Shown here piece by piece: positions 10,934 through 43,453 of a stretch of 64,000 nt of DNA (the first letter of the stretch is position 1; the number at the start of each line of letters is the position of its first letter). A program made the translations under genes and the position numbers. The notes under the pieces are model-generated. The model made no database searches and was not told where the DNA came from. It worked only from the letters and a program-made list of their open reading frames with translations. The stretch is from Nitrosopumilus sp. GTDB lineage: Archaea > Thermoproteota > Nitrososphaeria > Nitrososphaerales > Nitrosopumilaceae. The stretch is taken from positions 1,664,001 through 1,728,000 of the forward strand of contig OZ242041.1 of the NCBI GenBank assembly GCA_965205215.1, written 5' to 3'.

Positions 10934-11404
10934 TCAAGAAGAGGCGGCGCCGTCAAAGTCGTCTAGGATCTGGCTTGCATGTCCCGTCGGCTTTACCTTT
11001 GTATATGCTTTGAATATGATCCCGTCCTCTCCTACGAGAAACGAGCTCCTTATCACCCCTTCGCGCTCTTTGTCCCCGACCTTTTTCATGCCCCACACCC
11101 CGAACATTTTGGCCACCGCATGCTGCGTATCTGCCATCAGAACGTATTGGATTTTCTTCCTTTCACGGAAATTTTCATGCGACTCGACGCTGTCTGGACT
11201 GATCCCGATAACCTCTATGTCGCGGCGCCGGTATTCATCATATAGATTTCCAAACTCGTCGGCCTGGATGGTGCAACCCGGCGTAAAGTCCTTTGGGTAA
11301 AAATAGATCACATGCTTCTTGCCTGCAAAATCCTTGGAGCTTTTGAGCGTCCCCGGAGAATCCGGGAGTTCAAAGGACGGTACCGCGTCCCCTTCACTTA
11401 TCAT
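10934..11404 (-). CDS. bcp: peroxiredoxin (BCP/PrxQ family)
   Basis: YFYPKDFTPGCT, GISPD, RSSFLV. Confidence 0.92.
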   Translation of the reverse strand: MISEGDAVPSFELPDSPGTLKSSKDFAGKKHVIYFYPKDFTPGCTIQADEFGNLYDEYRRRDIEVIGISPDSVESHENFRERKKIQYVLMADTQHAVAKMFGVWGMKKVGDKEREGVIRSSFLVGEDGIIFKAYTKVKPTGHASQILDDFDGAASS

Positions 11405-11744: not shown

Positions 11745-11756
11745 AAACTTTTAAAA
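11745..11756 (+). promoter_or_regulatory. BRE/TATA core AAACTTTTAAAA of the 42-aa Cys-rich gene
   Basis: 22 nt separate it from ATG 11779; identical 12-mer and spacing upstream of the homologue at 25967. Confidence 0.7.
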
Positions 11757-11778: not shown

Positions 11779-11907
11779 ATGGCAGACTCATGTGCCGAAC
11801 AAATCGCGGCTAACAGCGAATGTAACTGCGCACCAAAGACCGAATGCGGTTGTGACTCGACAGCGTGTGAATGCGCTACAGAAATCTGCGTGACTGCAAG
11901 AGGATAG
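11779..11907 (+). CDS. metallothionein-like peptide (42 aa, 8 Cys); not in the ORF track
   Basis: MADSCAEQIAANSECNCAPKTECGCDSTACECATEICVTARG*; three CxC motifs, no aromatic residues, TATA upstream, T-run at 11921; homologue at 25833-25967. Confidence 0.8.
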   Translation: MADSCAEQIAANSECNCAPKTECGCDSTACECATEICVTARG

Positions 11908-11920
11908 AAAGTCCAACCAC

Positions 11921-11933
11921 TTTTTTTTATTTT
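11921..11933 (+). terminator. oligo-T terminator
   Basis: ttttttttatttt 14 nt after the stop. Confidence 0.65.
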
Positions 11934-12199
11934 AATTCTGTCATACTAGGCCTTGCGCGCCGCCGCTTATCTGCATGAGTCGCCATTCCGGATCACGCTT
12001 GCGGGCCTAGCAGTGTACCCGCGGCGCAACCGCAGTGTGGAGATGCGGGAACAGGAAGCCGCACGATCCGGGTTGGTCCGCGGCGCCGCGGCCGCGTTGC
12101 AATCCGGCGCCCGTGTAACACATGCCCGCCACACTGCAACCGCGCGCCTCGTCGTCGCTGGCGCCGTCCTGATCGGGCTCCTCTTGCCGCACGCGACAC

Positions 12200-12875
12200 C
12201 CTACCGGAAGGCAGGTGCGCGCCGGGCGCACCTGAACAAGTAAACTTGCAGTGATTGCGCCGGGCCACAGATACAAAACCGACAGGAAGTGCAAACAGCG
12301 GCAAGTCGTTCCTGCCCACGTAACACATCAGCAAGGAGGTACGAAGGGCATTCCACCCCAGCTTTTCGTGGAGGCCGTACATCCTGCGCGCCTACTTTGA
12401 TACAGAGCTGCTGATGGAGGAATCCAAGGGCAAGATGGCACACGACTTTCGCGTGTTCTTTAGGGGACGCAGGAGGTCGATGGAGTCAAAATACACCACA
12501 AACAAGGGCATGCTGCCAGAGGTCCTGCTGCAGGAGATGCAAGAGTCCTTTGCAAGATCCGAAGAGTTCCTCGGCCTCGAGAACACGGCCGCAGGCAAGG
12601 ACCACGTATTGGAGCAGAAAGAGGAGATGCACCACATGATACACAAGGCAACGCCAGAGCAGCTAGACCTGATGCTAGAGGCGCTCCGCGTCGTGCAGGG
12701 CGCTGGCAACATGACAGGTCTGGCGGCAACGGCAGCAGTGCTCGGCAACTAGCCGTACCCTGCGAAGCAATAGACGCAATGCTTGCTCGGGACTATCAAT
12801 TTGTAGCCTCGCTGCCCGACGGGCGCATAATCGTGGAAGTACCACCACGCGCAGGGTCCGAACCCAGAGTGGAAG
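12200..12875 (+). pseudogene. archaeal tyrosine recombinase/integrase pseudogene abutting the tRNA-Arg 3' end
   Basis: GKSFLPT*HISKEVRRAFHPSFSWRPYILRAYFDTELL.EESKGKMAHDFRVFF(RGR)..MESKYTTNKGMLP; after a frameshift near 12750: YQFVASLPDGRIIV. In-frame stop 12321-12323; the expected MGH reads RGR. Confidence 0.85.
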
Positions 12876-12950
12876 CGGACCCGACCGGATTCGAACCGGC
12901 GACCTAACGCTCCGCAAGCGTTCGCACTATCCATGCTATGCAACGAGTCC
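12876..12950 (-). tRNA. tRNA-Arg(GCG)
   Basis: Reverse complement GGACTCG..GCAT..GTGC-G-AACGC-TT-GCG-GA-GCGTT..GCCGG-TTCGAAT-CCGGT-CGGGTCC-G. Confidence 0.95.
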
Positions 12951-13204
12951 GTTAGGGGGCCATAAGACGCGCTTAATGTAAATTGCTGATCAGGCGTACG
13001 GGCACAGATCGACACTGTCATCGTGGCGCACGCCGGTACCGACCCCCGTTCTCAAATCGAGAAGACGAGGCCGGATTCAACGAATCGGATTCGCCCAGAT
13101 CAATAACAGGAGCGCGGCCAATACGTAAATGACGCGCTCCGAGCGGGCAGACCCAATAATATCACTAACTAGAATCAACCATGATAATTCCAAGATGCCC
13201 GCCG

Positions 13205-14071
13205 TTACGGCTTCGAGGCAAAAACATACTGCGTGTCGTCTGTCTGGTTAAACGTCCAGGCAGACGGCAATGCCACGGTTCCGGCATGTCGCAGCCCAGC
13301 GCGCCTCATAGTCTTCCCCCACCCGTGCATCCCCTCCGGATCGGAGGCGTACTTGGGAGACATTGTTCCGGCAAACACCCACCCCGGCATCTTGCGCCCG
13401 GCTGCTGCAAGCCTGTCCATTATTCCAGATGCCATAATATCACCGCCCATCTGAGCGAGGCCGCCCACAAAGACCACTGCAGGGGGGCCACAACCCATCA
13501 TCACATAGTCAAATTCTGTTGCGTCGGCGCAGTGGGCCTCGAAGCTGGACAGGTGTGAGAGCCGCTCTTGGAGCCCCACCAACTCCGCGTCGATCTCGAT
13601 GCCATGGGCATCCATGCCAAGCACGGATGCACAGAATGCAATCCTCCCATCCCCAGAACCCACATCTATGACCTGGCGGTATCCAAGGCCCTTGACGAGC
13701 CGCGCCAGCACGTATGCGGACGCGATCCACGTGGGAGAAAACGGCGCGCGGCTCGCCTCGTGCAGTATGCTCCCAAGCCAGTATTTGTTGGCGTCACCCT
13801 CGTATACAATGCACCGTATGCCGTGTAGTACGGACTCATGCGAGTCACGATAGATCGGATTCTCAGATGCAAATCTGTGCAACAGTTGGAGATCATCCCG
13901 GGGGATCAGGAATTCGTCTGAAGGCATGGCAGGTATTGCCTCCGCAATCTGGGCAGTGGGTCGTGACAATGCCAAGTCCCGCTTTATGCGACAGAGAGTC
14001 TTGGCAAGCATGTCGGCAGGATTTGGGGGTATCGTAGATTCCAGAACGGGTTCATTCAAGGTCATCACCAT
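13205..14071 (-). CDS. SAM-dependent methyltransferase-like protein
   Basis: VIDVGSGDGRI motif I, GIEID, ADA. Confidence 0.7.
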   Translation of the reverse strand: MVMTLNEPVLESTIPPNPADMLAKTLCRIKRDLALSRPTAQIAEAIPAMPSDEFLIPRDDLQLLHRFASENPIYRDSHESVLHGIRCIVYEGDANKYWLGSILHEASRAPFSPTWIASAYVLARLVKGLGYRQVIDVGSGDGRIAFCASVLGMDAHGIEIDAELVGLQERLSHLSSFEAHCADATEFDYVMMGCGPPAVVFVGGLAQMGGDIMASGIMDRLAAAGRKMPGWVFAGTMSPKYASDPEGMHGWGKTMRRAGLRHAGTVALPSAWTFNQTDDTQYVFASKP

Positions 14072-14212
14072 TTACGCAGTCACGGGCCCGCATTGGATCT
14101 GTCCAAGTTGCGACATGTGCTTTCGTCAGAGGCGGCAGCGCCGTTGTCAGCATGATTACCGCTGTTGACGTTGTCGCCATCGCCATAACCGCCACCATCA
14201 TCGGCATCACCA

Positions 14213-14731
14213 TTAGAGGCCAGCACGATCGCTCACCATTGCATCGTACTGCCCCACAAACTCGCGCACGCTCATGAGTTTTCTGAGCTGGGCATACCTT
14301 TCGGATTCGGCGGCCTCGTTTGCGGGTGCGGCCCCGCCCTGCAATGACGACAGCTGTGAGGAGGGCGTCAGCTCGCCTACGATGTCCCGTATCATGCCGT
14401 TTATCACGCGTTTTGCATCCCTGTGCAGTGCGTCATCAAAGCGCTTGGAGATAAAGGACTCTGCGTCGGATATCAGCCCAGATAGGCCGTCATCACAGGC
14501 CGTATCTTTTAGCGTCCCTGCGAGCGTCATGACGTTTGACACGGCATAGTACGCCTTTATGAGATCATCCAGGCCGTCGCGCTCCGGCCGCTTCCCGCTG
14601 CTCCACCCCTCTGCAGACTCTACAATCCTCTTCATCTCTGAGCACTGCGCGGCAAGCACCCCGGCGGCGGCTCCCGCACCGGCATTGTGTCTGCTGCCGG
14701 CACCCTTGACCATGGGGACACGGCGTGCCAA
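14213..14731 (-). CDS. hypothetical protein
   Basis: 172-aa helical-looking ORF downstream of the aquaporin; start uncertain. Confidence 0.55.
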   Translation of the reverse strand: MARRVPMVKGAGSRHNAGAGAAAGVLAAQCSEMKRIVESAEGWSSGKRPERDGLDDLIKAYYAVSNVMTLAGTLKDTACDDGLSGLISDAESFISKRFDDALHRDAKRVINGMIRDIVGELTPSSQLSSLQGGAAPANEAAESERYAQLRKLMSVREFVGQYDAMVSDRAGL

Positions 14732-14747
14732 ATTTTTTTAAAGGTTT

Positions 14748-15461
14748 TCAGGCTTCGGCCGCCTCTGCGTCGGCCTTTTTGACGAATACGTAGTTCATTA
14801 TCAGGCCCGCTATGATGCCGCCCAGGATAGGCGCGGCCCAGTACAGCCAGTGAAATTCCCAAAAGCCGGATATGAGCGCGGGTCCAAACGTCCTTGCCGG
14901 GTTTACGGACGCGCCCGTCAGCGGCACCGCAATCAGATGGATCAGGAAGACCATCCCGCCTATTGCAAAGCCGTGCCATCCCGGCGATGCCCTCTTGTGG
15001 ACGGCTGTCATGAATATGACCGTAACCAGAAAGAACGTCAGGATTGCCTCTATTGCAAAGCCAGATCCGACGCTGTTGTTTATGAGGTCGCTGGGTCCCC
15101 CCTGCGTGCCAAAGTTAACCTTTGCACCCAGCTCCGGAAGTATGGCCTTTAGCGTAGCGGCCGCGGCCACGGCCCCTACCAGCTGCGACGCTATATACGC
15201 AATGCCGTCGCTGACACCAATCTTCTTTGTAATCATCATCGGTATGGTGACTGCAGGGTTGATGTGGGCCCCGGAAACGTGTCCGAACGCGTATATCATA
15301 AGAGCAATTGCGCCGCCGTGTCCGAGCGATATGAAGAGGACAGACTGAGTGGTCAGCTCTTCACCAAATGACGCGATTGCCAATATTACGGAGAGTGGTC
15401 CAAAAAAGACAAGTCCGTATGTTGCAATGGCTTCAGCAAGATACGCCCGGGGGTTGGCCAT
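14748..15461 (-). CDS. aquaporin (MIP family)
   Basis: SGAHINPAVT and GASVNPAR NPA boxes; six hydrophobic segments. Confidence 0.95.
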   Translation of the reverse strand: MANPRAYLAEAIATYGLVFFGPLSVILAIASFGEELTTQSVLFISLGHGGAIALMIYAFGHVSGAHINPAVTIPMMITKKIGVSDGIAYIASQLVGAVAAAATLKAILPELGAKVNFGTQGGPSDLINNSVGSGFAIEAILTFFLVTVIFMTAVHKRASPGWHGFAIGGMVFLIHLIAVPLTGASVNPARTFGPALISGFWEFHWLYWAAPILGGIIAGLIMNYVFVKKADAEAAEA

Positions 15462-15687
15462 GCGGCAACACCCGTAATTTTACATATAAAAGATTCGCAA
15501 CGCGTGGGGGTAACCGTCCAACGCCCCCCCCCCCGTCAAATATCCGAACACGCCGCACACTAGACCATACACGGGGCCACATATCTAGCCGTCACGGGGG
15601 CAGTATCGCGGCGGGTATCGGGCGGTTACCGCTCGCGGCGCCTGTCCCGCGCTCAAGGTATAAAACAACCATCAGGTGCGGACAACC

Positions 15688-16158
15688 ATGCTGACGGACG
15701 GCGACAAGGTGCCGGCATTTGAGCTCATGGATGCGTTCGGGAACACCACGGGCTCTGGCGCCCTCAGGGGCAGAAAGTACGTGGTCTACTTTTACCCAAA
15801 GGACTTTACGTCGGGATGCACAATCGAGGCAGACGAATTCTCAAAGGCGTACGACGAGTTTAGGAAGAGAGGCATAGAGGTGGTCGGCATCAGTCCGGAC
15901 AGCGTCGAGTCGCACGGCAAGTTCTGCAAAAAGATGGGCATACCGTACGTGCTTTTGGCCGACACCGACAAGAAGGTAGCAGAGGCGTTTGGTGTCTGGG
16001 GCAAGAAAAAGTTCATGGGACGCGAATACATGGGAGTCAACAGGAGTACGTTTCTTGTGGACGAAGGGGGGACGGTGTTCAAGGTGTACAGCAAGGTAAG
16101 GCCCGCAGGACACGCCAAGGACGTGCTTGAAGAGTTTGAGCGCAGCGGTCCAGCGTAG
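15688..16158 (+). CDS. bcp: peroxiredoxin (BCP/PrxQ family)
   Basis: YFYPKDFTSGCT, HGKFC, RSTFLV. Confidence 0.92.
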   Translation: MLTDGDKVPAFELMDAFGNTTGSGALRGRKYVVYFYPKDFTSGCTIEADEFSKAYDEFRKRGIEVVGISPDSVESHGKFCKKMGIPYVLLADTDKKVAEAFGVWGKKKFMGREYMGVNRSTFLVDEGGTVFKVYSKVRPAGHAKDVLEEFERSGPA

Positions 16159-16205
16159 GCATGGCGAAACAATAAAGAAGAAAATAGGCGGGACGCGTCA
16201 AACGG

Positions 16206-17258
16206 CTAAAAGCCTTTTGGCAATGTCCCTCGGGGTTTCTTTGGCGGTTCAGGCTTTGGTTCAAATCCCTTTGGAAGCGCCCCGCGCTTTCCAGAGCTGG
16301 ATGCAGATGCTGCCTCGGCTGCCTCGGCTGCCGCTTGCTCTGCCATGGCCTTGGCTGCCTCTTGCCTCTGCTCCTCCAGCCGATTTAGATAGTCTGCCTC
16401 ATAGTCGGCAAGCTTCTGCGACCTGTTGCGGTCGTCGGGGGGTGGCGGTGGCGGTGACTGCTGCCGGGCCTCTGCGGGGGGTGGCGGTGGCGGTGACTGC
16501 TTTTCGGTCTGCGCACTGCTGCTACTGCCGGACGCCGAAACGCCCTCCACCTTCATAGCCGTCCCGCTGAAGCTTCCAAACCTCTTGTCCGGAGGATGGT
16601 ACGCAAGCCGGGCCCGCGTCGCAAAGTATTGGTCCGAGGGCTGCGTGTACCCCGTAACCTTTGCCTTCTGCTCGTTCCAGTTTGTGGTTGGAACCGTGCC
16701 CACGGGGGCCGTCAGTCTGACATAGTACCGGTTTGGCGCAGGCGAATAGCCCGTGACGTTGGTGCGGTACTTGTGAAAGTCAGTCTGCGGGGCGTCATAG
16801 TACGCGTCCTCCAGGGCGGCCGCAATTGTGGCCGCGGGTGGCTTGGCAGACTCGGCCGGTTTTGGCTTTTCTGCCGCCGCCGGCTTGGGGGCCGCCTTGT
16901 CAAATCCCTTTGGAAGCGTGCCCTTGGACTTCCTGGGCTCCGCCGCCGCCTCGGCCTTTTTGGGCTCGGGCTTGGGGGCGGGCTTGGGGGCCGCCTTGTC
17001 AAATCCCTTTGGAAGCGTGCCCTTGGGCTTCTTGGGCTCCGCCGCCGCCTCGGCCTTTTTGGGCTCGGGCTTGGAGGCCGCCTCGGCCTTTTTGGGCTCG
17101 GGCTTTGGCTCCTTCTTTGGCTTGGGAGCCGGCTTTGGCCCCAGCTGCTCAGACAGGCTTGCCAGTTTCGCCTCTAGTTCCGCAATCTTTGACTCGAGGT
17201 CCTTTTTAGTAGCGCGGGATGTCCTTGTAGACTTTGATGTACTGCGTGTGGTTGCCAT
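16206..17258 (-). CDS. Lys/Pro/Ala-rich disordered protein with GTLPKGF repeats (paralogue 1)
   Basis: N-terminal coiled coil KKDLESKIAELEAKL, four G(T/A)LPKGF motifs, central Tyr-rich block shared with paralogue 2. Confidence 0.8.
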   Translation of the reverse strand: MATTRSTSKSTRTSRATKKDLESKIAELEAKLASLSEQLGPKPAPKPKKEPKPEPKKAEAASKPEPKKAEAAAEPKKPKGTLPKGFDKAAPKPAPKPEPKKAEAAAEPRKSKGTLPKGFDKAAPKPAAAEKPKPAESAKPPAATIAAALEDAYYDAPQTDFHKYRTNVTGYSPAPNRYYVRLTAPVGTVPTTNWNEQKAKVTGYTQPSDQYFATRARLAYHPPDKRFGSFSGTAMKVEGVSASGSSSSAQTEKQSPPPPPPAEARQQSPPPPPPDDRNRSQKLADYEADYLNRLEEQRQEAAKAMAEQAAAEAAEAASASSSGKRGALPKGFEPKPEPPKKPRGTLPKGF

Positions 17259-17422
17259 TTAATGTACGAACAGACGTGATGCTTATTTACATTTTGTTTG
17301 GAGTGCGATCATGCCTGCCAATTTTACAGGAAAATGCCCAAAAAGATACAAAATGTGGCGTCCGCGTACGGCCCGGGCAGCCGCAGCCGAGGCGGTGGCG
17401 GTGGCCATACGCCTGAAACATC

Positions 17423-17623
17423 CTAGTCCGGCTCCCAGAACGTCATTACGAACATACAGTTGTTGCAGCGCCAAACCCTGAGGTGCACGCCGTTGTTGGT
17501 GTCTGCCATGTACCTGCCTTCCGGATCCTTCTCAAGCCGGGGAATGTACCCCAGTTCCGGGCTCTCAAGCCATTCCTTTTGGCCGCAGTTGTGACAGCTA
17601 GTCAGCGGAGGCACGTACGGCAT
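17423..17623 (-). CDS. small Zn-ribbon protein
   Basis: 66 aa, CHNC...CNNC; TTTTAA box upstream. Confidence 0.75.
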   Translation of the reverse strand: MPYVPPLTSCHNCGQKEWLESPELGYIPRLEKDPEGRYMADTNNGVHLRVWRCNNCMFVMTFWEPD

Positions 17624-17662
17624 ACGCCCCAGTCGCTATTAAAAATTAAAAAAGTCAGGTGC

Positions 17663-18571
17663 TCAGAAACCCTTTGGGAGCGTTCCCTTGGATTTTGATG
17701 CTGCTGTTGTCGATTCTGGCTTTGGAGTCTGCTGCTCCTGTCCCGCGGCTGCAACCTCGACGCTCATAGCCGTCCCGCTGAAGCTTCCAAACCTCTTGTC
17801 CGGAGGATGGTACGCAAGCCGGGCCCGCGTCGCAAAGTATTGGTCCGAGGGCTGCGTGTACCCCGTAACCTTTGCCTTCTGCTCGTTCCAGTTTGTGGTT
17901 GGAACCGTGCCCACGGGGGCCGTCAGTCTGACATAGTACCGGTTTGGCGCAGGCGAATAGCCCGTGACGTTGGTGCGGTACTTGTGAAAGTCAGTCTGCG
18001 GGGCGTCATAGTACGCGTCCTCCAGGGCGGCCGCAACTGTGGCCGCGGGTGGCTTGGCAGACTCGGCCGGTTTTGGCTTTTCTGCCGCCGCCGGCTTGGG
18101 GGCCGCCTTGTCAAATCCCTTTGGAAGCGTGCCCTTGGGCTTCTTGGGCTCCGCCGCCGCCTCGGCCTTTTTGGGCTCGGGCTTGGGGGCCGCCTTGTCA
18201 AATCCCTTTGGAAGCGTGCCCTTGGGCTTCTTGGGCTCCGCCGCCGCCTCGGCCTTTTTGGGCTCGGGCTTCGGGGCAGGCTTGGGGGCCGCCTTGTCAA
18301 ATCCCTTTGGAAGCGTGCCCTTGGGCTTCTTGGGCTCCGCCGCCGCCTCGGCCTTTTTGGGCTCGGGCTTCGGGGCAGGCTTGGGGGCCGCCTTGTCAAA
18401 TCCCTTTGGAAGCGTGCCCTTGGACGATGCCTTGGACGCGGCGTTGGCACTCCCGTCAGACTTGGCCGCCGCGTTATTCTGCAGTTCGGCCACAAGCGCG
18501 TCTATCTTTGACTCCAGCTCGACAATCTTGGACTCTAGGTCCTTTTTGGTCGCTCTTTTTGAAGCTGCCAC
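17663..18571 (-). CDS. Lys/Pro/Ala-rich disordered protein with GTLPKGF repeats (paralogue 2)
   Basis: KKDLESKIVELESKI, tandem 29-33-aa units, five GTLPKGF motifs including the C-terminus; GTG start. Confidence 0.8.
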   Translation of the reverse strand: MAASKRATKKDLESKIVELESKIDALVAELQNNAAAKSDGSANAASKASSKGTLPKGFDKAAPKPAPKPEPKKAEAAAEPKKPKGTLPKGFDKAAPKPAPKPEPKKAEAAAEPKKPKGTLPKGFDKAAPKPEPKKAEAAAEPKKPKGTLPKGFDKAAPKPAAAEKPKPAESAKPPAATVAAALEDAYYDAPQTDFHKYRTNVTGYSPAPNRYYVRLTAPVGTVPTTNWNEQKAKVTGYTQPSDQYFATRARLAYHPPDKRFGSFSGTAMSVEVAAAGQEQQTPKPESTTAASKSKGTLPKGF

Positions 18572-18757
18572 GGACAGGATGGACGGAGTGGGGTTTATCT
18601 ATATTTTGATCAGCGGGCGGCCGCCGGTGCCAGAATCGGCCCGTCAGAACGCCCATCCGCCAAATCCAGGCGGACGGAACCTGCCCCACCACGGATCGCC
18701 CGCCCCCTGATCAAGTTTTATATTCTCTGGTAGACTAGACATCTCCGGAGACCACGC

Positions 18758-19141
18758 ATGGACGACTTTGAGGACGACTATCCGGAATTCGACTGGAAGA
18801 ACATACCGGCATACAAGCACCCGGGCGGCAAGGACTGCCCGTGTCCAAAGCACGAGTACATACGCGAGCAGGTCAACTACACAAAGCAGATCAACGAGGC
18901 AAACAAGGGCGGCGGCGAGCCGGCCCGAATGAAGCTCAGGTTCTGCCCCGACCACTACCGCGTGTACTATGACGAGGTCATACCAGGCATGCCACTAAAG
19001 TACAAGATGCTGACAAAGATTGCGCTCAAGATCGGGGCGATCAAGATAGAGAAGCTAAAGTACATGGAGTCGGAGCTCTGCTTTTACTGCAAGTTCGGCT
19101 CCGGCGGGTACGACAAAAAGACCGAGCTTCCGCCGCTCTGA
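18758..19141 (+). CDS. hypothetical Cys-containing protein
   Basis: 127 aa with CPCPKH, CPDH and CFYC; TTTTATA box upstream. Confidence 0.7.
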   Translation: MDDFEDDYPEFDWKNIPAYKHPGGKDCPCPKHEYIREQVNYTKQINEANKGGGEPARMKLRFCPDHYRVYYDEVIPGMPLKYKMLTKIALKIGAIKIEKLKYMESELCFYCKFGSGGYDKKTELPPL

Positions 19142-19160
19142 GGATGCGAGTGCGCGCGGC

Positions 19161-19400
19161 TCATCCCGGACTGAGCAGTATTTTTGGCCTGTTCGGCGTG
19201 TCGTGGTGGCACGGCTTGCCACACAGGGGGCATTTCTTTCGGTCGAGAAAAACGCACTGGCATATGTGCGACTTGATGTAGGACGCGGCAGTCCTGCTGG
19301 GCTCGCCGGTTCCGTTGCAGAACGGGCACTGCTGGTCGAGCAGCTCTATCGTGCCGGAGCCCTTGCACACGGCGCATCCGTCACTGTCGCTTTCCGGCAT
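19161..19400 (-). CDS. small Cys-rich protein with DnaJ-type CxxCxGxG zinc finger
   Basis: CAVCKGSG...CPFCNGTG, then HICQC...CPLC..CHH. Confidence 0.75.
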   Translation of the reverse strand: MPESDSDGCAVCKGSGTIELLDQQCPFCNGTGEPSRTAASYIKSHICQCVFLDRKKCPLCGKPCHHDTPNRPKILLSPG

Positions 19401-19590
19401 TCAATCCCACCCGGCGGGACGGTTAAAAATAGCTAAGCCGCCCGCATCTTCTACGAGGCCCAGAACTCCGCGGCCAGGTGGAAGGCCTACACGCGGCGGC
19501 AGCGGTGCCCCACCCCCGGCCGCAAACAGCCCGCAATGGCGATCAGGGAAAAAGCAACATATCCTTATACCGCGTCGCCGCAGGCGTTAC

Positions 19591-21063
19591 ATGCCAATAG
19601 ACGGGCTCGGCGAGCTTGTAGACGTACTGGAGGAGGAGGGCGAGCTGAGGCGGGTCTCAGCAGAGGTCGATGCCGACCTGGAGGTGGCCGAGATACTGCG
19701 GCGGATCTCATACGGCCCCGAAGGCGGGGACAGGGACGGAGGCCCCGCCATACTCTTTGAGAATGTCAAGGGGCACGAGATGCCGATACTGGGCAACGCG
19801 TTTGGTTCCGCAAGGAGGATGGAGATTGCCCTGGGTACTGCAGACTATACCGAGATCGGCAGGCGCATTGCAGACATGTCCAAGATCAGAATTCCATCAG
19901 GACTGCTCGGCAAGATAAAGAGCCTGCCGGAGCTCTCAAAGATGGCGGGCGCGTTTCCAAAGGAGCCTGTAGAGTCGGGGCCCGTGTCAGAGACCGCGCC
20001 CAAGGGCGCCGGGTTCGACTCCATGCCGATACTGCGCTCGTGGCCGCACGACGCCGGCAGGTTCATTACGTTTGGCATGGTGGCGACACGCCATCCGGAG
20101 ACCGGCGTGCGAAACCTCGGCGTATACCGTATGCAGATAATCGACGGCTCGCGCTGCATCATACACTGGCAAAAGCACAAGCGGGGGGCCGCGCACGGCG
20201 ACATCTCAAGAGAGGCGGGCCAGAAGATACCGGCCGCAATCATAATCGGAGGCGAGCCGGCCACCATATTCTCGGCAGTCGCCCCGGTGCCGGAGGGAAT
20301 GGACAAGTACCTGTTTGCAGGAATAGCGCGCGGAGGCGAGGGGATAAGGACCGTGAAGTGCCGCACGATAGACCTCGACGTGCCGGCAAACGCGGAGATC
20401 GTAATAGAGGGGCACGTGGATCCGTCGGAGCTGGAAGACGAGGGCCCCTTCGGGGATCACACCGGATACTATACCCCTGTCGAGAAGTACCCCGTGTTTA
20501 CCATGACAGGCATGATGGTGCGCAAGAACCCGATATACCTTGCCACCGTGGTGGGCAGGCCCGTGCTGGAGGACGCCTACATCGGAAAGGCCATAGAGAG
20601 ATCATTCCTGCCACTCATACAGATGTTCCACCCCGAGGTGGTCGACTTTGCCATGCCGCCGGCCGGGTGGTTCCAAGGGCTTGCCATCGCATCCATCGCA
20701 AAGCGGTACCCCGGGCAGGCAAAAAAGGTGATGATGGGCCTGTGGAGCATGGGGCAGCTTGCCCTCACGAAGATGATCATAGTGGTCGACGCCGACATCG
20801 ACGTGCACGACATGGAACAGGTGATATGGGCGGTCACCACGAGGGCGGACGCGGCCCACGACACCACCATAATCAGGGACGCCCCCACCGACACGCTAGA
20901 CCCGGCCGCGAGGATAGTGAACCTGGGCTCAAAGCTGGGGATAGACGCGACCCAGAAGACCGCCGCGGAAGGGTACCTGAGGGAGGTGCAGAGGCCAGTG
21001 GAGACGGACGACGCCACCAAAAGGACCGTCGAGAAAAGGTGGAAAGAGTACGGGCTGCCGTGA
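19591..21063 (+). CDS. UbiD-family decarboxylase (menaquinone biosynthesis)
   Basis: RNLGVYRMQ, EGPFGDHTGYY, DTLDP, KLGIDAT. Confidence 0.93.
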   Translation: MPIDGLGELVDVLEEEGELRRVSAEVDADLEVAEILRRISYGPEGGDRDGGPAILFENVKGHEMPILGNAFGSARRMEIALGTADYTEIGRRIADMSKIRIPSGLLGKIKSLPELSKMAGAFPKEPVESGPVSETAPKGAGFDSMPILRSWPHDAGRFITFGMVATRHPETGVRNLGVYRMQIIDGSRCIIHWQKHKRGAAHGDISREAGQKIPAAIIIGGEPATIFSAVAPVPEGMDKYLFAGIARGGEGIRTVKCRTIDLDVPANAEIVIEGHVDPSELEDEGPFGDHTGYYTPVEKYPVFTMTGMMVRKNPIYLATVVGRPVLEDAYIGKAIERSFLPLIQMFHPEVVDFAMPPAGWFQGLAIASIAKRYPGQAKKVMMGLWSMGQLALTKMIIVVDADIDVHDMEQVIWAVTTRADAAHDTTIIRDAPTDTLDPAARIVNLGSKLGIDATQKTAAEGYLREVQRPVETDDATKRTVEKRWKEYGLP

Positions 21064-21084
21064 CGCCGCATGCGCCGCGACGCG

Positions 21085-22212
21085 TCACACTGTCCTGTAA
21101 AAGTTGTCGCGCTCTGACGCCTCGTACCCCATCTGGGATATCGCGTTCCGGATTATGTCGCCGGTCAGCTCCGTCGACCGGGCGCCCGTGCAGGACACCA
21201 CCTCCTCGCCTATCAGCGTGCCGCCAAAGTCGTCGGCCCCGTACTGCAGCGCAAGCTGCGCCATGCCGACCCCGTTTGTAAGCCAGGACGACTGTATGTG
21301 GGGTATGGACGCGTCGTATACGAGCCTGGATATCGCAATCATCTTGAGCAGCTGGATGCCGCCTGAGCCGAACTCGGACGTCACAATCTTGTCGACCAGC
21401 CCGTCCCTCTGCATCGGGGTGTTGCCGGGCTCAAAGTTCCACGGTATGAACGCCATAAACCCGCCCGTCTCCTCCTGCAGCTTGGCAATCTCGAAGAAGT
21501 GGTCCGCGATGTCAGACGTGGTCTCCGCATGCCCGTACATCATAGTGGCCGACGACGGCAGTCCAAGCGAGTGCGCCTCCCTCATTATGCGCAGCCAGTC
21601 GGAGCTTGAGATCTTTTTGGGGCTTATGGCGTCCTTGACGTCGTCACTCAGTATCTCGGCGCCGGCCCCTGGCACGGACTGCAGTCCGGCCTCCTTGAGG
21701 CGCGAGAGCACCTCCGCGGTAGACGACCGCTCCACCCGGGCAACCATGTCTATCTCCGACGGGGAGAGCGCGTGCACGCCCACGCCCGGGTAACTGTCGC
21801 GAATCATGCGGAACGCCTCCTCAAAGTACTCGATGCCCAGCTTGGGGTTGTGCCCTCCTTGGAAGAGGACCTGGCGTATGCCGAACATCTCGTGCGCGGT
21901 CTTCACCCTGGCCCTGATCTGCGAGATGTCAAGTGTATAGGACTCGTCGTGCCCGGGCGGCCTGTAAAAGGCGCAAAACGTGCAGTCCGTTATACAGACG
22001 TTGGTGTAATTGAGTATGATGTTGTTCACGTACGTGGCCCTGCGCCCAAAGCGCCTCTGCACGAGGTGCCGGGCCGCCATTCCCATCAGGTGGACGTCGT
22101 CGGACTTCAAGAGCCGCATGCAGTCATGCCTGTCAGGGGCGTGCCCCGCAACTACCCTCTCAAGTATGTCCCCAATCTCGCTCTGGTGCAGCTGCGCAGT
22201 GACCAATCCCAT
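21085..22212 (-). CDS. mqnC: radical SAM dehypoxanthine futalosine cyclase (CofH/MqnC family)
   Basis: NYTNVCITDCTFCAF, QGGHNP, PGAGAEIL, ATMMYGH, GADDFG. Confidence 0.8.
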   Translation of the reverse strand: MGLVTAQLHQSEIGDILERVVAGHAPDRHDCMRLLKSDDVHLMGMAARHLVQRRFGRRATYVNNIILNYTNVCITDCTFCAFYRPPGHDESYTLDISQIRARVKTAHEMFGIRQVLFQGGHNPKLGIEYFEEAFRMIRDSYPGVGVHALSPSEIDMVARVERSSTAEVLSRLKEAGLQSVPGAGAEILSDDVKDAISPKKISSSDWLRIMREAHSLGLPSSATMMYGHAETTSDIADHFFEIAKLQEETGGFMAFIPWNFEPGNTPMQRDGLVDKIVTSEFGSGGIQLLKMIAISRLVYDASIPHIQSSWLTNGVGMAQLALQYGADDFGGTLIGEEVVSCTGARSTELTGDIIRNAISQMGYEASERDNFYRTV

Positions 22213-22532
22213 GCACCGGATGTACGGAATTTTCTATTTAATTCTTGACGATGGCGCGCTCCAGCATACCAAGTGGCCACGTGCGCGGCAAGCCGCGAGA
22301 GACGCCCCTTGTCCCCTCTCGTACCGCCGGCTTTGATGCGGGCAGATCCGAGGACTTGCGTCTCGGGGGATTCCCCGAGATGCCTGCCGCATGCGGCGCA
22401 TACGTTACGCGATGCCAAGAACAGAAGGCGCCTGGTCGTAAAGTGGGATCTGGAGGGAGGAGGGCGGGGGCGGAAGGGGGAGGGCGGGGGGAACCTATAT
22501 TGTTTTTAAGTGGGAAGCCCGGAGCCGGTGTG

Positions 22533-23321
22533 ATGGTGACAGGCGTCCAGCTCCGAATGGCCAGGATAATGCGCCGCGGCCGCATGCTCTGCATACCCAT
22601 GGATCATGGGATATCAAACGGGCCGATAGAGGGGCTTGAGGATCCCGCCTCAGTCATATACAGGTGCCAGAACAGGGGTATAACCAGCGTCATAGTCAAC
22701 AAGGGAGTCATAAAGGCGCTTCCAGAGCCCGTGCCACGCATAGGGGTGCTGGTGCACTTTTCAAGCAGCACGTCGCTCTCCACGTCCCCGAATCGCAAGA
22801 TGCTGACTGGGACGGTCAAGGAGGCAGTCGCGCTGGGCGCAGACGGCGTGTCGCTGCACATCAACGTGGGCGGCAAGGAGGAGCCGGAGATGCTAGAGCA
22901 GCTCGGGATGACTGCGGCCGCATGCCACAGGTGGAACATGCCGCTGCTTGCAATGATGTATCCGAGGGGCGAGAACATCAGCGATCCGCACGACCCGGCC
23001 GTGGTGGCCCACGCGGCCCGCATCGGGGCCGAGTGCGGGGCGGACATCGTAAAGACCGTATACACGGGGGATGCCGCGTCCTTTGCAAAGATAGTAAAGA
23101 GCACGCCGGTGCCCATAGTGATAGCCGGAGGTCCAAAGGCGGAGACGGACATGGATCTGCTCCAGATGACGGAGGATGCCATGAGGGCGGGCGCCGCCGG
23201 GGTCACGTACGGCAGGAACATATTTGCGCACGGCGCGCCCGAGAGAATGGTCGACGCGCTTGCCGCGGTCATATTCAAGGGGGCAAAGGCGACGGAGGCG
23301 GCAAAAAAGCTTGGCCAGTGA
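22533..23321 (+). CDS. aroA': 2-amino-3,7-dideoxy-D-threo-hept-6-ulosonate synthase (class I aldolase family)
   Basis: PMDHG, AMMYPRG, GADIVKT, IAGGPK, GRNIF; adjacent to DHQ synthase II. Confidence 0.88.
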   Translation: MVTGVQLRMARIMRRGRMLCIPMDHGISNGPIEGLEDPASVIYRCQNRGITSVIVNKGVIKALPEPVPRIGVLVHFSSSTSLSTSPNRKMLTGTVKEAVALGADGVSLHINVGGKEEPEMLEQLGMTAAACHRWNMPLLAMMYPRGENISDPHDPAVVAHAARIGAECGADIVKTVYTGDAASFAKIVKSTPVPIVIAGGPKAETDMDLLQMTEDAMRAGAAGVTYGRNIFAHGAPERMVDALAAVIFKGAKATEAAKKLGQ

Positions 23322-24435
23322 CGGTTCGGCGACGGCGTCCGGAAAGGAGCTGATAGTACAGCCCAAGCAGAAGAGCAGAAAACAGCGGGGGGAGTTCCTA
23401 GCACAGCTGCAGGCAGAGGGCCTGCAGACGGCATATGCCGACCCGAGCATTGCCGCAGGCGGGGGAGGAAAAAAGAAGAGCGGCCTCAAGACGATGTTTG
23501 CGGACGCGGGCGCCGACTACGTGGTGCTTGCCGGAGGCCGCGGCCCGAAAAGGCCGGCCTCGCCGCCAAGGAGAAGGGGCGGCAAGAGGTACGGCATGCG
23601 CTTTAAGATTACGTCGAACGCGGACATCGAGGACGTGCTGAGTGTCGCGGCAAGCAAGAGGCTCGACTTTGTCATAGTGGACGTAAAGGACTGGAAGATC
23701 ATACCGCTTGAGAACATCATAGCAAAGCTGCACAAGATGAGCACGAGGATAATCGCGCTTGCCCGCACGCCGGCCGAGGTTCGCAAGATGTTCTCCATAC
23801 TTGACGTAGGGGTGGACGGAGTGATATTCGCCGCGTCGTCCATATCCCAGGTGCGGGAGGTCATGCTTTACATGGGCGGCAGAAGCTTCGGGATGGAGGC
23901 GGCCGCCATAACCGAGATAAAGGAGGTGGGCGACGGCGAGCGCGTCTGCGTGGATACGGCCTCGATGCTCAAGAAGGGCGAGGGCATGCTTATCGGGAGC
24001 CGGTCAAACTTTATGTTCCTAGTCCACAACGAGTCGGTCGGCTCGTCGTTTACGTCGCCGAGGCCGTTCCGCGTGAACGCCGGGGCGGTCCACTGCTATA
24101 CCCCGTCGCCGGACGGCACCACAAAGTACCTCTCGGAGATAGAGACGGGTTCAGAGGTGCTCATACTCACGCCGGAGGGCCACGCGAGGAGGGCAGCGGT
24201 GGGAAGGTCAAAGATAGAGCGCAGGCCCATGCTCATGATAAAGGCCGAGGCGGCCGGCGAGATCGGCGGCATCATAGCGCAGGACGCGGAGACGATCAGG
24301 TTTGTAAAGCCGGGCGGGAGGCTGGTCTCCGTCACGCACCTCAAGGTGGGCGACAAGGTGATGGTGCACGCCCGCAGGGCTGCGGGCAGGCACTTTGGCA
24401 TGGAGGTCGCCGACGAGTACATTTTAGAAAAGTGA
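23311..24435 (+). CDS. aroB': 3-dehydroquinate synthase II
   Basis: WKIIPLENIIA, GERVCVDT, RPFRVNAGAVH, GRSKIERRP, GRHFG; start approximate. Confidence 0.92.
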   Translation: MASDGSATASGKELIVQPKQKSRKQRGEFLAQLQAEGLQTAYADPSIAAGGGGKKKSGLKTMFADAGADYVVLAGGRGPKRPASPPRRRGGKRYGMRFKITSNADIEDVLSVAASKRLDFVIVDVKDWKIIPLENIIAKLHKMSTRIIALARTPAEVRKMFSILDVGVDGVIFAASSISQVREVMLYMGGRSFGMEAAAITEIKEVGDGERVCVDTASMLKKGEGMLIGSRSNFMFLVHNESVGSSFTSPRPFRVNAGAVHCYTPSPDGTTKYLSEIETGSEVLILTPEGHARRAAVGRSKIERRPMLMIKAEAAGEIGGIIAQDAETIRFVKPGGRLVSVTHLKVGDKVMVHARRAAGRHFGMEVADEYILEK

Positions 24436-25148
24436 TGGCTTCAAAAAAGAACAGGTACAGCACGTGCGTCTCAGTGGCAAAGGGCGGCCCCGCGGCGATG
24501 CGCAGGGCGCTCTTGGAGGCGCTCAGGAGATCAGAGTACGCGGAGGCGCGGCTCGACTATATGAGGCCCGACGACATGCAGGGACTGCTCGACTCGCTGC
24601 CGCCGGACCTTTTGAGGAGGCGCATAGTCTGCACCATACGAAACAGGCGGGACGGCGGCAGGTACGAGGGGCGAGAGGGGGCCAGGTACGACATGCTCGG
24701 CAGGGTAGCCGCGTACAGGCCGTTTATGCTAGACGTCGAGTACGACGCGCTCAAGAGGAGCAGGAGGCTGGCAGGCGCGCTGCATGCGAGCGGCGCCCGC
24801 CTGTTGGTCTCGTGGCACAGCTTTGCGCGCACCCCGTCGCCTGACGCGCTGCACAGAAGAATGCAGGGGATGTTTAGATACTCGGACCACGTCAAACTCG
24901 CATGCATGGCAAGGAATGCAGATGAGTCAATACGCATGCTCGAGCTGTACAGGCAGATTGGCAGCGGTGGCTCGGGCGGAGGCAGTAGAACCCTCATATC
25001 GTTTGCAATGGGCGACGCGGGCAGGCTGACACGCGTGCTCTGCATGCAGCTGGGAAGCCCTTACGCGTACGTGTCGCTCGGCAGGGCCGTGGCCCCGGGG
25101 CAGCTCTCGCTTGAGGAGTTCAGGCGGCTGGGCAGCATGCTCAAGTGA
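24432..25148 (+). CDS. aroD: type I 3-dehydroquinate dehydratase
   Basis: EARLDY, TIR..DGG, VSWHSF..TP, FAMG..G..TR, APGQL. Confidence 0.9.
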   Translation: MMASKKNRYSTCVSVAKGGPAAMRRALLEALRRSEYAEARLDYMRPDDMQGLLDSLPPDLLRRRIVCTIRNRRDGGRYEGREGARYDMLGRVAAYRPFMLDVEYDALKRSRRLAGALHASGARLLVSWHSFARTPSPDALHRRMQGMFRYSDHVKLACMARNADESIRMLELYRQIGSGGSGGGSRTLISFAMGDAGRLTRVLCMQLGSPYAYVSLGRAVAPGQLSLEEFRRLGSMLK

Positions 25149-25255
25149 CGTGCCACTGGGAGCGGATGGCTCGATCACGCCGCGGCGCAGGGTGCCGGAC
25201 GCGGCGGCTCCACGCGCACAAAAAATCTATTAGTTCCAAGGACGGATACACATCA

Positions 25256-25657
25256 TTGGAGTCGGAACCCCGCACGGTCATCATATACGACAACCTGTGC
25301 TCCCTCTGCACCGCGTTTGCACGGTGCGCATGCGCGCTGTCAAGGGGCAGGCTCAGGCCCGTCGGACACTACTCGCAGGAGGGCGAGGGGGCGTACAGGG
25401 ACGCGCTGGGCGTCGACGCGCTCAAGATGTTCTGGATTGTAAGCGGGGACATGGCCTTTGGCGGGAGGGCGGCCCTGCGTCCGCTGCTCTCCGAGATTGC
25501 AAGGGGGGTGTACCGCGCGCCGCGCGACAGGGACGCAGTCGCGCCACCGGACTCAGGCTGCGGCAGGTCAGACTGCAGCGGCCCAAAAAAGGCCATTGCG
25601 AGGTCGGCAAGCCTGATCCTCAACAGCAAAAGGATCTGCATTCGGAACCCAGAATGA
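25256..25657 (+). CDS. DCC1-like thiol-disulfide oxidoreductase family protein
   Basis: IIYDNLCSLC (DxxCxxC) at the N-terminus; TTG start estimated. Confidence 0.65.
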   Translation: MESEPRTVIIYDNLCSLCTAFARCACALSRGRLRPVGHYSQEGEGAYRDALGVDALKMFWIVSGDMAFGGRAALRPLLSEIARGVYRAPRDRDAVAPPDSGCGRSDCSGPKKAIARSASLILNSKRICIRNPE

Positions 25658-25812
25658 CTGGCAGCCGCAGAACCTGGATCCGCTCCAAAGGTTTCTGGAA
25701 ATGAGCCGCGGGTGCGGCATCAGTGCCGCATACCGGCAGAGCGCCGCGCAGCGTGGGCGCCGCGACACGCGCAGGCGTCCCAGTTGGGTGACTGCACCGC
25801 CGTACGGCACAG

Positions 25813-25826
25813 AAAAAATAAAAAAA
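25813..25826 (-). terminator. oligo-T terminator of the 44-aa Cys-rich gene
   Basis: A-rich run on + (T-run on -) immediately after the stop. Confidence 0.65.
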
Positions 25827-25832
25827 TCAGTT

Positions 25833-25967
25833 CTAGTGCTCTGTGCTCTTGCAGGGATCACCACTGCAATCACATGTTGAATCACAGTAGCATTCGCTCT
25901 GCATCGAGCAGTCACATTCTGTGTTGTTTTCCGCTTGCGCGGCACAACCGCATGCTGCATCCGACAT
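25833..25967 (-). CDS. metallothionein-like peptide (44 aa, 9 Cys); not in the ORF track
   Basis: MSDAACGCAAQAENNTECDCSMQSECYCDSTCDCSGDPCKSTEH*; four CxC motifs; aligns with 11779-11907. Confidence 0.82.
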   Translation of the reverse strand: MSDAACGCAAQAENNTECDCSMQSECYCDSTCDCSGDPCKSTEH

Positions 25968-25989: not shown

Positions 25990-26001
25990 TTTTAAAAGTT
26001 T
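25990..26001 (-). promoter_or_regulatory. BRE/TATA core AAACTTTTAAAA of the 44-aa Cys-rich gene
   Basis: Same 12-mer and same 22-nt gap to ATG as at 11745-11756. Confidence 0.7.
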
Positions 26002-26111: not shown

Positions 26112-27308
<1,197 letters not shown>

Positions 27309-27417
27309 CACATGCCCCCATGCGTGTATAAAGAGATCAGCAGATACGCATCCACATCCGTGCGCGTCGCAACCGAAAGCATTTCCTTTAAATTGAGACA
27401 TTCCAGTTTTCAATCTA

Positions 27418-27495
27418 GCTCCCATAGTGTAGTCCGGTTAAGCATACTGCCCTCTCAAGGCAGTGACTCGGGTTCAAATCCCGATGGGAGCACCA
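27418..27495 (+). tRNA. tRNA-Glu(CTC), followed by genomic CCA
   Basis: GCTCCCA..CTGCC-CT-CTC-AA-GGCAG..TCGGG-TTCAAAT-CCCGA-TGGGAGC-A-CCA. Confidence 0.95.
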
Positions 27496-28961: not shown

Positions 28962-29133
28962 TAGGACAGCATTTGAGCAGATTCCATATTAAGTGTGGCA
29001 GCACGTGCGGGTTTGCAGGGCCGTGCCGCGGGCGCGGACGGACCAATGCGGCAGGAAAGGACCGGCCGCAAGCGTCCGCACGCACGCAGCAAACAAGCTT
29101 AAAATATCTCGCGGGATGCCTCGGACACATAGC

Positions 29134-29604
29134 ATGAGCGCAGAGGCAACCCCGACATCAAGCCACGCGTACGGAGTGGGAGTGATTGCGTTGATAATCG
29201 CGCTGTCGGCCACCACGGTCTTTTACACCTCGTACTACCTGCCCGAATCGCTTGCAAAACCGTCCGTATCAGAACATATACTCCATCCCGAGGAGACTCT
29301 TGTAATCGACATTGTAGAGGGCGCCCTTATAGAAGGCAACGACAACTACATACCAAACAGCCCCACCGCGTACCTGACCATCAACAACCTGGTCAAGTGG
29401 ACAAACAGCGACGGGACGGCGCACACGGTCACGCCGGACCACAGGCACGCGGACTCCTACAGCGGCGACTTTGGCTCAGACGGCGTGATGATGCCGGGCG
29501 ACGAGTACGAGTTCCTGTTCACCGAGCCGCAGGTGGTGACCTACCACTGCACCCCCCACCCGTGGATGAAGGGCACCATAACCGTGGAGAAGAGCAGGTT
29601 CTAG
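29134..29604 (+). CDS. membrane-anchored cupredoxin (plastocyanin/azurin family)
   Basis: N-terminal TM helix; WTN.D..AHTVT and YHCTPHPWMKG type-1 Cu ligands. Confidence 0.9.
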   Translation: MSAEATPTSSHAYGVGVIALIIALSATTVFYTSYYLPESLAKPSVSEHILHPEETLVIDIVEGALIEGNDNYIPNSPTAYLTINNLVKWTNSDGTAHTVTPDHRHADSYSGDFGSDGVMMPGDEYEFLFTEPQVVTYHCTPHPWMKGTITVEKSRF

Positions 29605-33867: not shown

Positions 33868-34881
33868 TCAGGCCTTGGCGACCTTTATCAGGTCCGCCAT
33901 GCGTATGTCCATCCCGAACCTGTCCTCGTGCTTTTTCATGTATCTGAATATGGAGATAAAGTCCGGCAGCGACCTCACAAGGCTAAAGTCCTTGCGTATC
34001 TTTGAGTGCACAAAGTTGAACACCTTGGAGTATACCTTGTAGTGCTCGTCGACGGCCCGCTCGTACGCGGCAAAGTCCCCAATGTTCTCCAGGAATATCT
34101 CGGCGCACTGCATCGACGGTATGATTCCCTCGCCGAGCAGGGCGTATACGGTCCCGATCGACTCGCCCACGCCGACCACCTTGCCGCTGTAAAACGGCTT
34201 GCACTTGTTGGGGGTGGCAAGCCGGATGGGCCTGCCCTTTGTCTGCAGTATTTTGCCCCCGTGCTTTTTCAGAAAGGCGTCCGTAGCCTTTACGTGGTTC
34301 TTGTTGTAGTCGCCCGCCCCGACGTGGGCCCACTTTTCGCCGAGCGGAAAGTACCAAAAGTAGCCGGACATGCCGGGGAACGGCTCGATGTAAAAGTCGT
34401 CATACGGGACGCCCCCCTCGTACTCGACCTTGTACTCGTACGTGGGCAGGAAGAAGTCCTTCTCAAGCTTTGGCAGGTAGGCCCTGTGGAAGCCCGTGCA
34501 GTCCACGATTATGTCGTATTCGGACTCCAGAACCCCGAGGGCGGGGGGCTTGCCGTACGTGACGTCCGCGTCCTTTATGAACTCCTTTATGAGCCCCAGC
34601 TTGTTGTAGGTGCACAGGCCGTGCAGCCCGATGTCAAACCCGACGCCGTTGTTCATGCGCACGCTCATCTGCCTGCCGTCGTGTATCAGGAACCTGCCAA
34701 AGTCCACGCCCACCTTCGAGCAGAACTCCTCAAGGACGGGCCTTATGGTCCCCCAGGCGCATATGGAGTCGTGGCGCTCCTCGGGCATCATCTCGTACCC
34801 GGCCACGTCGTGGCCGGTGCCGGCCAGGCGCGCCATCAGGTAGGAGCCGGCCACCCCCATGCCCATTACCGCAATCTTCAA
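33868..34881 (-). CDS. FAD-dependent oxidoreductase (geranylgeranyl reductase-like)
   Basis: GMGVAG, CAWG, VDCTG, GYFWYFP, VGES.G.V..LLGEGI. Confidence 0.8.
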   Translation of the reverse strand: MKIAVMGMGVAGSYLMARLAGTGHDVAGYEMMPEERHDSICAWGTIRPVLEEFCSKVGVDFGRFLIHDGRQMSVRMNNGVGFDIGLHGLCTYNKLGLIKEFIKDADVTYGKPPALGVLESEYDIIVDCTGFHRAYLPKLEKDFFLPTYEYKVEYEGGVPYDDFYIEPFPGMSGYFWYFPLGEKWAHVGAGDYNKNHVKATDAFLKKHGGKILQTKGRPIRLATPNKCKPFYSGKVVGVGESIGTVYALLGEGIIPSMQCAEIFLENIGDFAAYERAVDEHYKVYSKVFNFVHSKIRKDFSLVRSLPDFISIFRYMKKHEDRFGMDIRMADLIKVAKA

Positions 34882-35177
34882 CGATGCAAATGGGCGGCAT
34901 CCCAATAAATACAGTGATGGTGTTGGCCGGTGCCGCCCACAAAGGAGAGGGCGGCGCAGCCCCGGGCGCACCCGGACGCAGCCGCGCCAGGTATGCGCGA
35001 CGGTGGCGGCGGCCTGCGCCCGGTCAGCGCCTTTCCAGTCCGCGTGTAAGTTTGCGCATTGCCGTCGCGACCATTGCCGCCATAATCACCGTGCAGACGT
35101 CGTTGGGGTTATTGCCACCGCCAATGTCACCGCCATCAGTAACCAGTGACTTTGACGCTCGCGGAATTTTCGCGGCG

Positions 35178-43314: not shown

Positions 43315-43453
43315 TCCGTACGATCCCCCGTCCAGATCCGCGTTTTATCACTGTAGTTGTGGCGCTCGGATCCGTCATTATTACCATTGCCATTGTCGTC
43401 ATTACCATTACACCTCAGTATAATGTCATCATTGCGGTCACCGTGGGCGGCGC

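Follow-up and report, generated by a model that had tools for sequence, protein, structure and literature searches.

A cysteine-rich module resembling metallothioneins, free and joined to a membrane protein, in one family of marine ammonia-oxidizing archaea

The beta domain of vertebrate metallothioneins holds three divalent ions on nine thiolates, and few or no aromatic residues are a classical criterion for such proteins. Low molecular mass and a high cysteine content with CxC or CC motifs are, in one published description, among the further criteria for their recognition (PMC6215804). Metallothioneins fold only on metal binding, as is set out in a second source (PMC7558416). Three bacterial systems are portrayed there: MymT, a mycobacterial cysteine-rich copper metallothionein of about 5 kDa with a predicted capacity of up to six Cu(I) ions, whose small open reading frame (ORF) was first left unannotated; SmtA/BmtA, small cytosolic cysteine-rich proteins that sequester zinc and cadmium in a metal cluster; and the Csp proteins, which are lined with cysteines and store Cu(I) in the cytosol or periplasm of organisms reliant on copper monooxygenases (PMC7558416). 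Here we describe a module of about 40 residues present in a 64,000-nucleotide stretch of a Nitrosopumilus sp. genome (assembly GCA_965205215.1, contig OZ242041.1, positions 1,664,001 to 1,728,000, hereafter the window). Direct translation yields two genes for it, ORF A (11779-11907, plus strand; 42 amino acids (aa), 8 Cys, net charge about -5) and ORF B (25833-25967, minus strand; 44 aa, 9 Cys, net charge about -8). The module is probably a cytoplasmic metal-thiolate cluster module of metallothionein type.

The original prediction had described the two ORFs as homologous genes of fewer than 50 codons, and its coordinates and translations were exact on re-reading of the sequence. BLASTP aligned the peptides with 16/35 identities (46 %, E 5e-8), which confirmed the homology. 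In multiple alignments each of the 8 Cys in ORF A is matched by a Cys in ORF B, again as predicted; the CGC pair is incomplete in ORF A, where its first Cys is missing, and a 1-residue insertion precedes the last CxC there. Four CxC pairs are present in ORF B, three and two single Cys in ORF A. Both peptides are short (42 and 44 aa), rich in Cys (19 % and 20.5 %) arranged in CxC pairs and poor in aromatic residues (none in ORF A, one Tyr in ORF B, which also has one His), so that the proposed metallothionein-like composition of about 20 % Cys, CxC motifs and few aromatics was borne out. Equally correct was the remark that their acidity is atypical for a metallothionein, with 7 and 9 Asp and Glu against 2 and 1 Lys and Arg in ORF A and ORF B, respectively. 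The genes lie in AT-rich gaps within a region of about 60 % GC. An alternative start of ORF A at ATG 11758 (49 aa) is unlikely, because only 2 nt separate it from the promoter box described below.

The consensus of the module, about 40 aa long and with its nine Cys placed within ~35 residues, reads CGC-x9/10-CDC-x5-CxC-x3-CxC-x4-C. In 44 sequences, free as well as fused, eight of the Cys positions show no exception and the ninth reaches at least 90 % conservation; G7, D19 and Q23 are likewise nearly invariant (at least 90 %). A 24-row profile of the module, A2, matched 148/151 genomes and 27/27 genera of the archaeal family to which the window belongs, and the three genomes without a match have a completeness of 86 %, 91 % and 71 %. 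The conserved Cys pattern that the original prediction expected in relatives is thus present. In a class-wide draw the profile matched 144/145 genomes of the family versus 1/105 genomes from 13 other families, the lone outside match being weak (E 0.005). These counts include unpublished genomes, all of them matching (G117, G132 and G133 in the family search, G117 and G331 in the class-wide draw); without them they become 145/148 and 142/143. ORF B matched the profile with E 9.4e-19 and nine of nine Cys and ORF A with 8/9 Cys and the 1-aa insertion, matches that arise partly by construction as A2 was built in part from these sequences, while the other genomes provide independent support. Relatives of ORF B were found in 24/24 other genomes of the genus and in none of 16 genomes taken one each from 16 other families of the order. 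A HMMER search of 1.84 billion cluster representatives returned only 30 clusters at E<=0.001, and the names of the relatives were those of Nitrosopumilus-like marine ammonia oxidizers. The module is confined to one archaeal family of marine ammonia oxidizers.

Codon-level comparison covered 27 distinct standalone genes. Between ORF B and the type-1 (MSDAACGC-type) orthologs, L072 excepted, the proportion of synonymous differences (pS) was 0.75-1.0, i.e., saturated, and that of nonsynonymous differences (pN) 0.08-0.13. The median ratio of nonsynonymous to synonymous substitution rates (dN/dS) was 0.32 over 82 pairs with 0.05<dS<1.5. For ORF A the comparison rests on a single RNA-library contig from a close relative: five synonymous third-position changes, two of them in Cys codons, stood against one nonsynonymous change (Val to Ala), next to small differences around the stop codon. 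Selection at the protein level, as postulated from the Cys conservation, is therefore apparent in both genes: ORF A and ORF B are protein-coding genes under purifying selection. Cysteine density alone proves nothing, because Cys-dense frames are not rare in this GC-rich DNA; the window holds 21 frames with at least 7 Cys in 40 aa, compared to 1-5 per block shuffle (n=20). The two genes stand beyond chance because they are conserved across genomes. Four other long Cys-rich frames (8-10 Cys per 40 aa) had no Pfam match, at 43424-44821 (plus strand), 42011-42634 (plus), 57945-58298 (minus) and 34593-35300 (plus), and probably arise from GC-rich genes read out of frame.

Four copies of the motif are present in the genome itself (2.10 Mb, one contig): ORF A, ORF B, a 236-aa ORF and a 458-aa protein. 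In the family the module nearly always exists as a free peptide of 44-49 aa, and in genera with a single profile match this match is a short open frame. The 458-aa protein (C1:1660398-1661774, L003 1480-2856, minus strand) is encoded about 3.6 kb upstream of the window start and is a type-I membrane protein with the module as C-terminal tail. Fusions of this kind, about 411-458 aa long, consist of a signal peptide, an ectodomain of about 290 aa, one transmembrane helix, basic residues, a conserved Gln/Gly-rich linker and the module. The helix spans residues 314-336 in the 458-aa protein and is immediately followed by Arg and Lys residues, for which reason, by the positive-inside rule, the fused module is expected in the cytoplasm. 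The free forms are without signal peptide. A cytoplasmic location is thus predicted for the module in both forms, and with it reduced thiolates rather than disulfides. The ectodomain protein was found in 60/61 genomes and 27/27 genera of the family; in several genera that have only the free peptide, e.g., G050 and G042, it is shorter and lacks the tail. Since the tail is present in some genera and absent in others, this membrane protein, which occurs throughout the family, has either gained or lost the module. The free gene is not linked to the membrane-protein gene, the distance being about 116 kb in genome G010 and about 570 kb in G012. AlphaFold2 modeled the 458-aa fusion with a predicted local distance difference test score (pLDDT) of about 90 at residues ~40-210 and ~260-280 and below 50 in the tail. 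Comparison of this model to the PDB with Foldseek gave nothing (TM-score about 0.12), the highest Z with VIA-align wide was 5.3 and no row stood out, so the ectodomain is without a recognizable relative there, and a language-model search with the ectodomain returned only unnamed Nitrososphaerota clusters (scores 0.81-0.83). A second membrane architecture is represented by P0023, a protein of 129 aa with a C-terminal module and hydrophobic segments that, judged by eye, appear to be transmembrane helices. The 236-aa ORF (C1:664184-664894, L002 1501-2211, plus strand) has the module at its N-terminus, the same promoter box 22 nt upstream, no stop codon after the module, internal repeats and further Cys; it may be a genuine fusion, or else the frame runs on because its stop codon was lost. 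One of the peptide clusters also lists a 504-aa "ferredoxin" (P0064), which was unrelated by sequence and set aside.

Each ORF had been predicted to have its own promoter and terminator, and both elements could be read in the sequence. The box AACTTTTAAAA, similar to a B recognition element and TATA box (BRE/TATA), is located at 11746-11756 (plus strand) for ORF A and at 25990-26000 (minus strand) for ORF B and ends in either case 22 nt before the start codon (ATG 11779 and ATG 25967, respectively). Oligo-T terminators of the archaeal type follow, T8 then T4 at 11921-11933 (plus strand), 14 nt past the stop of ORF A, and T7 then T6 at 25813-25826 (minus strand), just past the stop of ORF B. 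In the 64 kb of the window the degenerate form AAVYTTTAAAA is present at three sites, compared to 0.05 expected, and 0/100 shuffles reached this number. The third copy, AACCTTTAAAA at 14736-14746 (minus strand), is upstream of an ordinary 166-aa gene whose family is not known, so the box has to be seen as a general strong promoter element. This copy is situated directly after a MIP (aquaporin-family) gene at 14748-15461. The identical box with identical spacing was upstream of the standalone genes at 20 loci from 20 other genomes of the family, most of which have T-runs 3' of the stop as well. Given the usual archaeal distance between TATA box and transcription start, the spacing places the ATG at or next to the transcription start and implies a leaderless or near-leaderless mRNA for both ORFs. 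RNA data were available as contigs of two sponge metatranscriptome libraries, X1 and X2, that hold parts of the region. In X1, contigs from a ~93-97 % identical relative cover ORF A, and the contig over ORF B has a loose end with an A-run at the ORF B stop (25834); X2 had no contig over either ORF. The X1 contig depth is unfit for ranking expression and DNA carry-over is possible; the contigs are weak evidence for transcription of the ORFs.

The gene neighborhoods distinguish the two genes. ORF B is the positional ortholog of the standard standalone peptide of the family. Its upstream neighbor (26112-27425, minus strand) encodes a protein of about 294 aa in relatives, extended here by a long poly-Asp/Gly insertion of low complexity, and a homolog was directly upstream on the same strand at 17/20 loci from other genomes of the family and at 5/7 loci of the genus. 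This protein had no match in Pfam, NCBIfam or the PDB sequences. The ATG listed for the neighbor overlaps a tRNA gene (27418-27492), hence its true start is probably an internal Met. By eye, the N-terminus of the neighbor (FPxGLGGC...CDYDxxVFD; G-G...D-x-D) is nucleotidyltransferase-like; in an alignment only one Gly and one Asp of this pattern were invariant. ORF A had no ortholog in 80 other species genomes of the genus, and its single match there (E 6e-4) was a gene of the ORF B type. ORF A is a divergent, lineage-specific extra paralog that is still constrained. It is transcribed divergently from an AhpC/TSA peroxiredoxin gene (10934-11404, minus strand; Pfam E 6e-34). The cupredoxin that the original prediction had noted nearby was confirmed as a plastocyanin/azurin-family ORF (PF00127, E 2e-7), its position having been given only roughly as 29134 instead of 28993-29604 (plus strand). 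At locus L070, from another genus, a plastocyanin-like ORF (34 % identity over 65 aa, a weak match) lies about 280 nt downstream of the peptide gene. Downstream of ORF B, a 170-aa ORF (25145-25657, plus strand) converges on it and overlaps the end of the type I dehydroquinase gene (24432-25148); it carries a CxxC motif (YDNLCSLC) and had no Pfam or NCBIfam match. In the runs that cover the region, contig depth falls at 16500-17050 and climbs two- to five-fold at 17760-18410, where short contigs occur, which suggests that this stretch is variable or repeated.

With the beta domain of vertebrate metallothioneins (PF00131), one of the closest described systems, the module shares a length of about 30-40 residues, nine Cys in CxC pairs and single positions, the near absence of aromatic residues and a cytoplasmic location. 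It differs in showing no significant sequence relationship, in a first CxC pair that is 9-10 residues away, in its strong acidity, whereas the vertebrate proteins are Lys-rich, and in being single-domain, archaeal and also the tail of a membrane protein. MymT, likened here by description and not by sequence, comes closest as a precedent, being a very small metal-thiolate peptide of a prokaryote that had been overlooked; it belongs to another phylum and another domain of life, and its role in copper resistance was shown by experiment, whereas the archaeal module is known from sequence. SmtA has a zinc-finger-like fold and uses His ligands too; the archaeal module, in contrast, has at most one, nonconserved His and no match to a Pfam bacterial metallothionein model at E<=10. 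Cu(I) storage of the Csp type is functionally what an ammonia oxidizer might need, but Csps are pre-folded four-helix bundles of about 120 residues, while the module has about 40 residues and no predicted regular structure.

With the fusion profile, the only match among the PDB sequences was human metallothionein-1A, with CxC-x5-CxC-x3-CxC in register; because of an E of 0.047, which is not significant, and a strong composition bias, this has to be taken as resemblance, not homology. The module profile A2 had no match among the PDB sequences at E<=10, and NCBIfam had no family for ORF A, ORF B, a 47-aa ortholog or the 458-aa fusion. In a language-model search all Pfam-labeled matches were metallothionein families, with scores of 0.87, 0.80 and 0.78 that are below 0.9 and serve as leads only. 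The AlphaFold2 model of the peptide, calculated metal-free from 44 sequences, had a pLDDT of 60 and almost no secondary structure, and this low-confidence model had no Foldseek match in the PDB, a result that carries no information for a model of such quality. Such a structure-poor model would fit, as weak evidence, a fold that forms only on metal binding.

According to the explanation that we favor, the genes encode acidic mini-proteins of a single module in the cytoplasm, expressed from a strong consensus promoter as leaderless mRNA. The nine Cys, four CxC pairs and one further Cys, would most likely fold only around a metal-thiolate cluster, in which the nine thiolates could hold, for instance, three divalent ions or else several ions of Cu(I). 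The free peptide may buffer or hand over soft metals such as Cu(I), Zn(II) or Cd(II), and in many genera the module would in addition be anchored on the cytoplasmic side of the membrane, where it forms the tail of the conserved type-I protein. We infer metal binding, the identity of the metal and the physiological role from sequence, and the Cu/Zn storage or detoxification system of the original prediction is likewise putative. Several observations weigh against this explanation. Neither ORF A nor ORF B had a Pfam family at E<=10. None of the Pfam metallothionein models reached its gathering threshold with any of the 44 members; PF00131 matched 4/44 below threshold (best E 0.018) and PF02067 1/44 (E 6.6), and these matches may reflect composition only. 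The high acidity and the near absence of Lys are unlike classical metallothioneins. The rigid spacing, the conserved non-Cys residues and the tether to a specific membrane protein via a conserved linker would suggest a module with a dedicated structural or interaction task rather than a general sponge for metals. The conserved neighbor is the ~294-aa protein without known family and not a metal transporter or regulator, the other neighbors in the window are housekeeping genes, metal-homeostasis genes are absent as conserved neighbors, and the plastocyanin/azurin-family ORF is 3 kb away from ORF B, in an adjacency that is not consistent.

In a first alternative, the module would be a structural zinc-cluster domain, i.e., a fixed zinc cluster for protein-protein interaction or signaling at the cytoplasmic face of the membrane protein, with the free peptides as soluble partners, competitors or regulators instead of metal stores. 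We consider this unlikely, though it agrees with the strong conservation of Cys, several non-Cys residues and spacing, with the highly conserved cytoplasmic linker that joins the module to a protein of 60/61 genomes and 27/27 genera, and with the second membrane architecture of P0023. The tail-less membrane proteins of several genera, e.g., G050 and G042, where the only profile match of the genome is a short free frame, are in line with it as well. However, the free peptide is near-universal, has a strong promoter of its own and is unlinked to the membrane-protein gene. A zinc-cluster domain would also need a metal cluster and differs from the metallothionein-like module in role, not in chemistry.

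As a thiol redox or iron-sulfur (Fe-S) peptide, the module would act as an oxidant scavenger, a redox buffer or a small iron-sulfur carrier, which we regard as very unlikely. The abundant acidic residues could favor harder metals such as iron. Repeated CxC pairs, however, are an unusual pattern for the binding of 4Fe-4S or 2Fe-2S clusters, and no Fe-S family was matched in Pfam or NCBIfam. For a redox function speak the divergent arrangement of ORF A and the AhpC/TSA peroxiredoxin gene and the oxidative-stress defense with which metallothioneins themselves are credited in one of the sources cited above (PMC7558416); the adjacency is limited to ORF A and was not seen for the family-wide ORF B. 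Highly improbable, in our view, is a role as precursor of ribosomally made, post-translationally modified Cys-rich peptides with the ~294-aa neighbor as modifying enzyme. The size of 42-47 aa and the richness in Cys resemble some such precursors, and the conserved same-strand pairing at 17/20 loci would suit a precursor and its enzyme; yet large membrane proteins contain this very module as an integral domain at their C-terminus, a leader/core layout is missing as the conserved Cys pattern sets in 6 residues after the Met, a separate promoter box precedes the peptide gene, and no radical-SAM, cyclase or transporter genes are nearby. That the ORFs are chance open frames, which the 21 Cys-dense frames of the window might suggest, or non-coding RNA genes in AT-rich spacers is almost certainly wrong, since the reading frame is kept across 27 genera with saturated synonymous and few nonsynonymous differences, promoter, start, stop and terminator are all conserved, and no Rfam family was found over ORF A or ORF B.

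The metallothionein-like module had been announced as a hidden family, which is overstated. The two exact sequences of the window were absent from a collection of 15 billion proteins, but orthologs are already deposited, 47-aa forms as "hypothetical protein" and some automatically named "Metallothionein" (UniRef) or "metallothionein 4" (JGI/IMG). No paper on the family, or on a metallothionein or comparable metal buffer of the cytoplasm in these archaea, was found in a literature search whose scope left most subscription journals and supplements outside. New here are the bounds of the module and its restriction to one family, its forms tethered to the membrane, the leaderless layout with a conserved promoter, the conserved neighbor and the recognition of ORF A as an extra paralog.

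In the ocean, marine ammonia-oxidizing archaea belong to the most abundant cells, and their dependence on copper proteins is heavy. In the most far-reaching interpretation, the module would represent the first archaeal metallothionein family, specific to marine ammonia oxidizers and with a single origin at the base of the family. Two forms would then act jointly, a Cu(I)/Zn-thiolate peptide that is free and highly expressed and a copy tethered to a surface protein found throughout the family, and provide a route by which copper is acquired and handed over to the machinery of copper-dependent ammonia oxidation. We hold this to be quite unlikely as a whole. The small genes themselves teach that sequences below 60 aa can be family-wide core genes without a Pfam or NCBIfam model. 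Nearly universal in the family, preceded by a consensus promoter and with nine Cys in a metallothionein-like pattern, the mini-protein, which occurs free and tethered, is a concrete candidate that is cheap to test. If metal binding holds true, it would be an experimentally unexplored type of archaeal metallothionein and a marker for metal stress in ocean metatranscriptomes.

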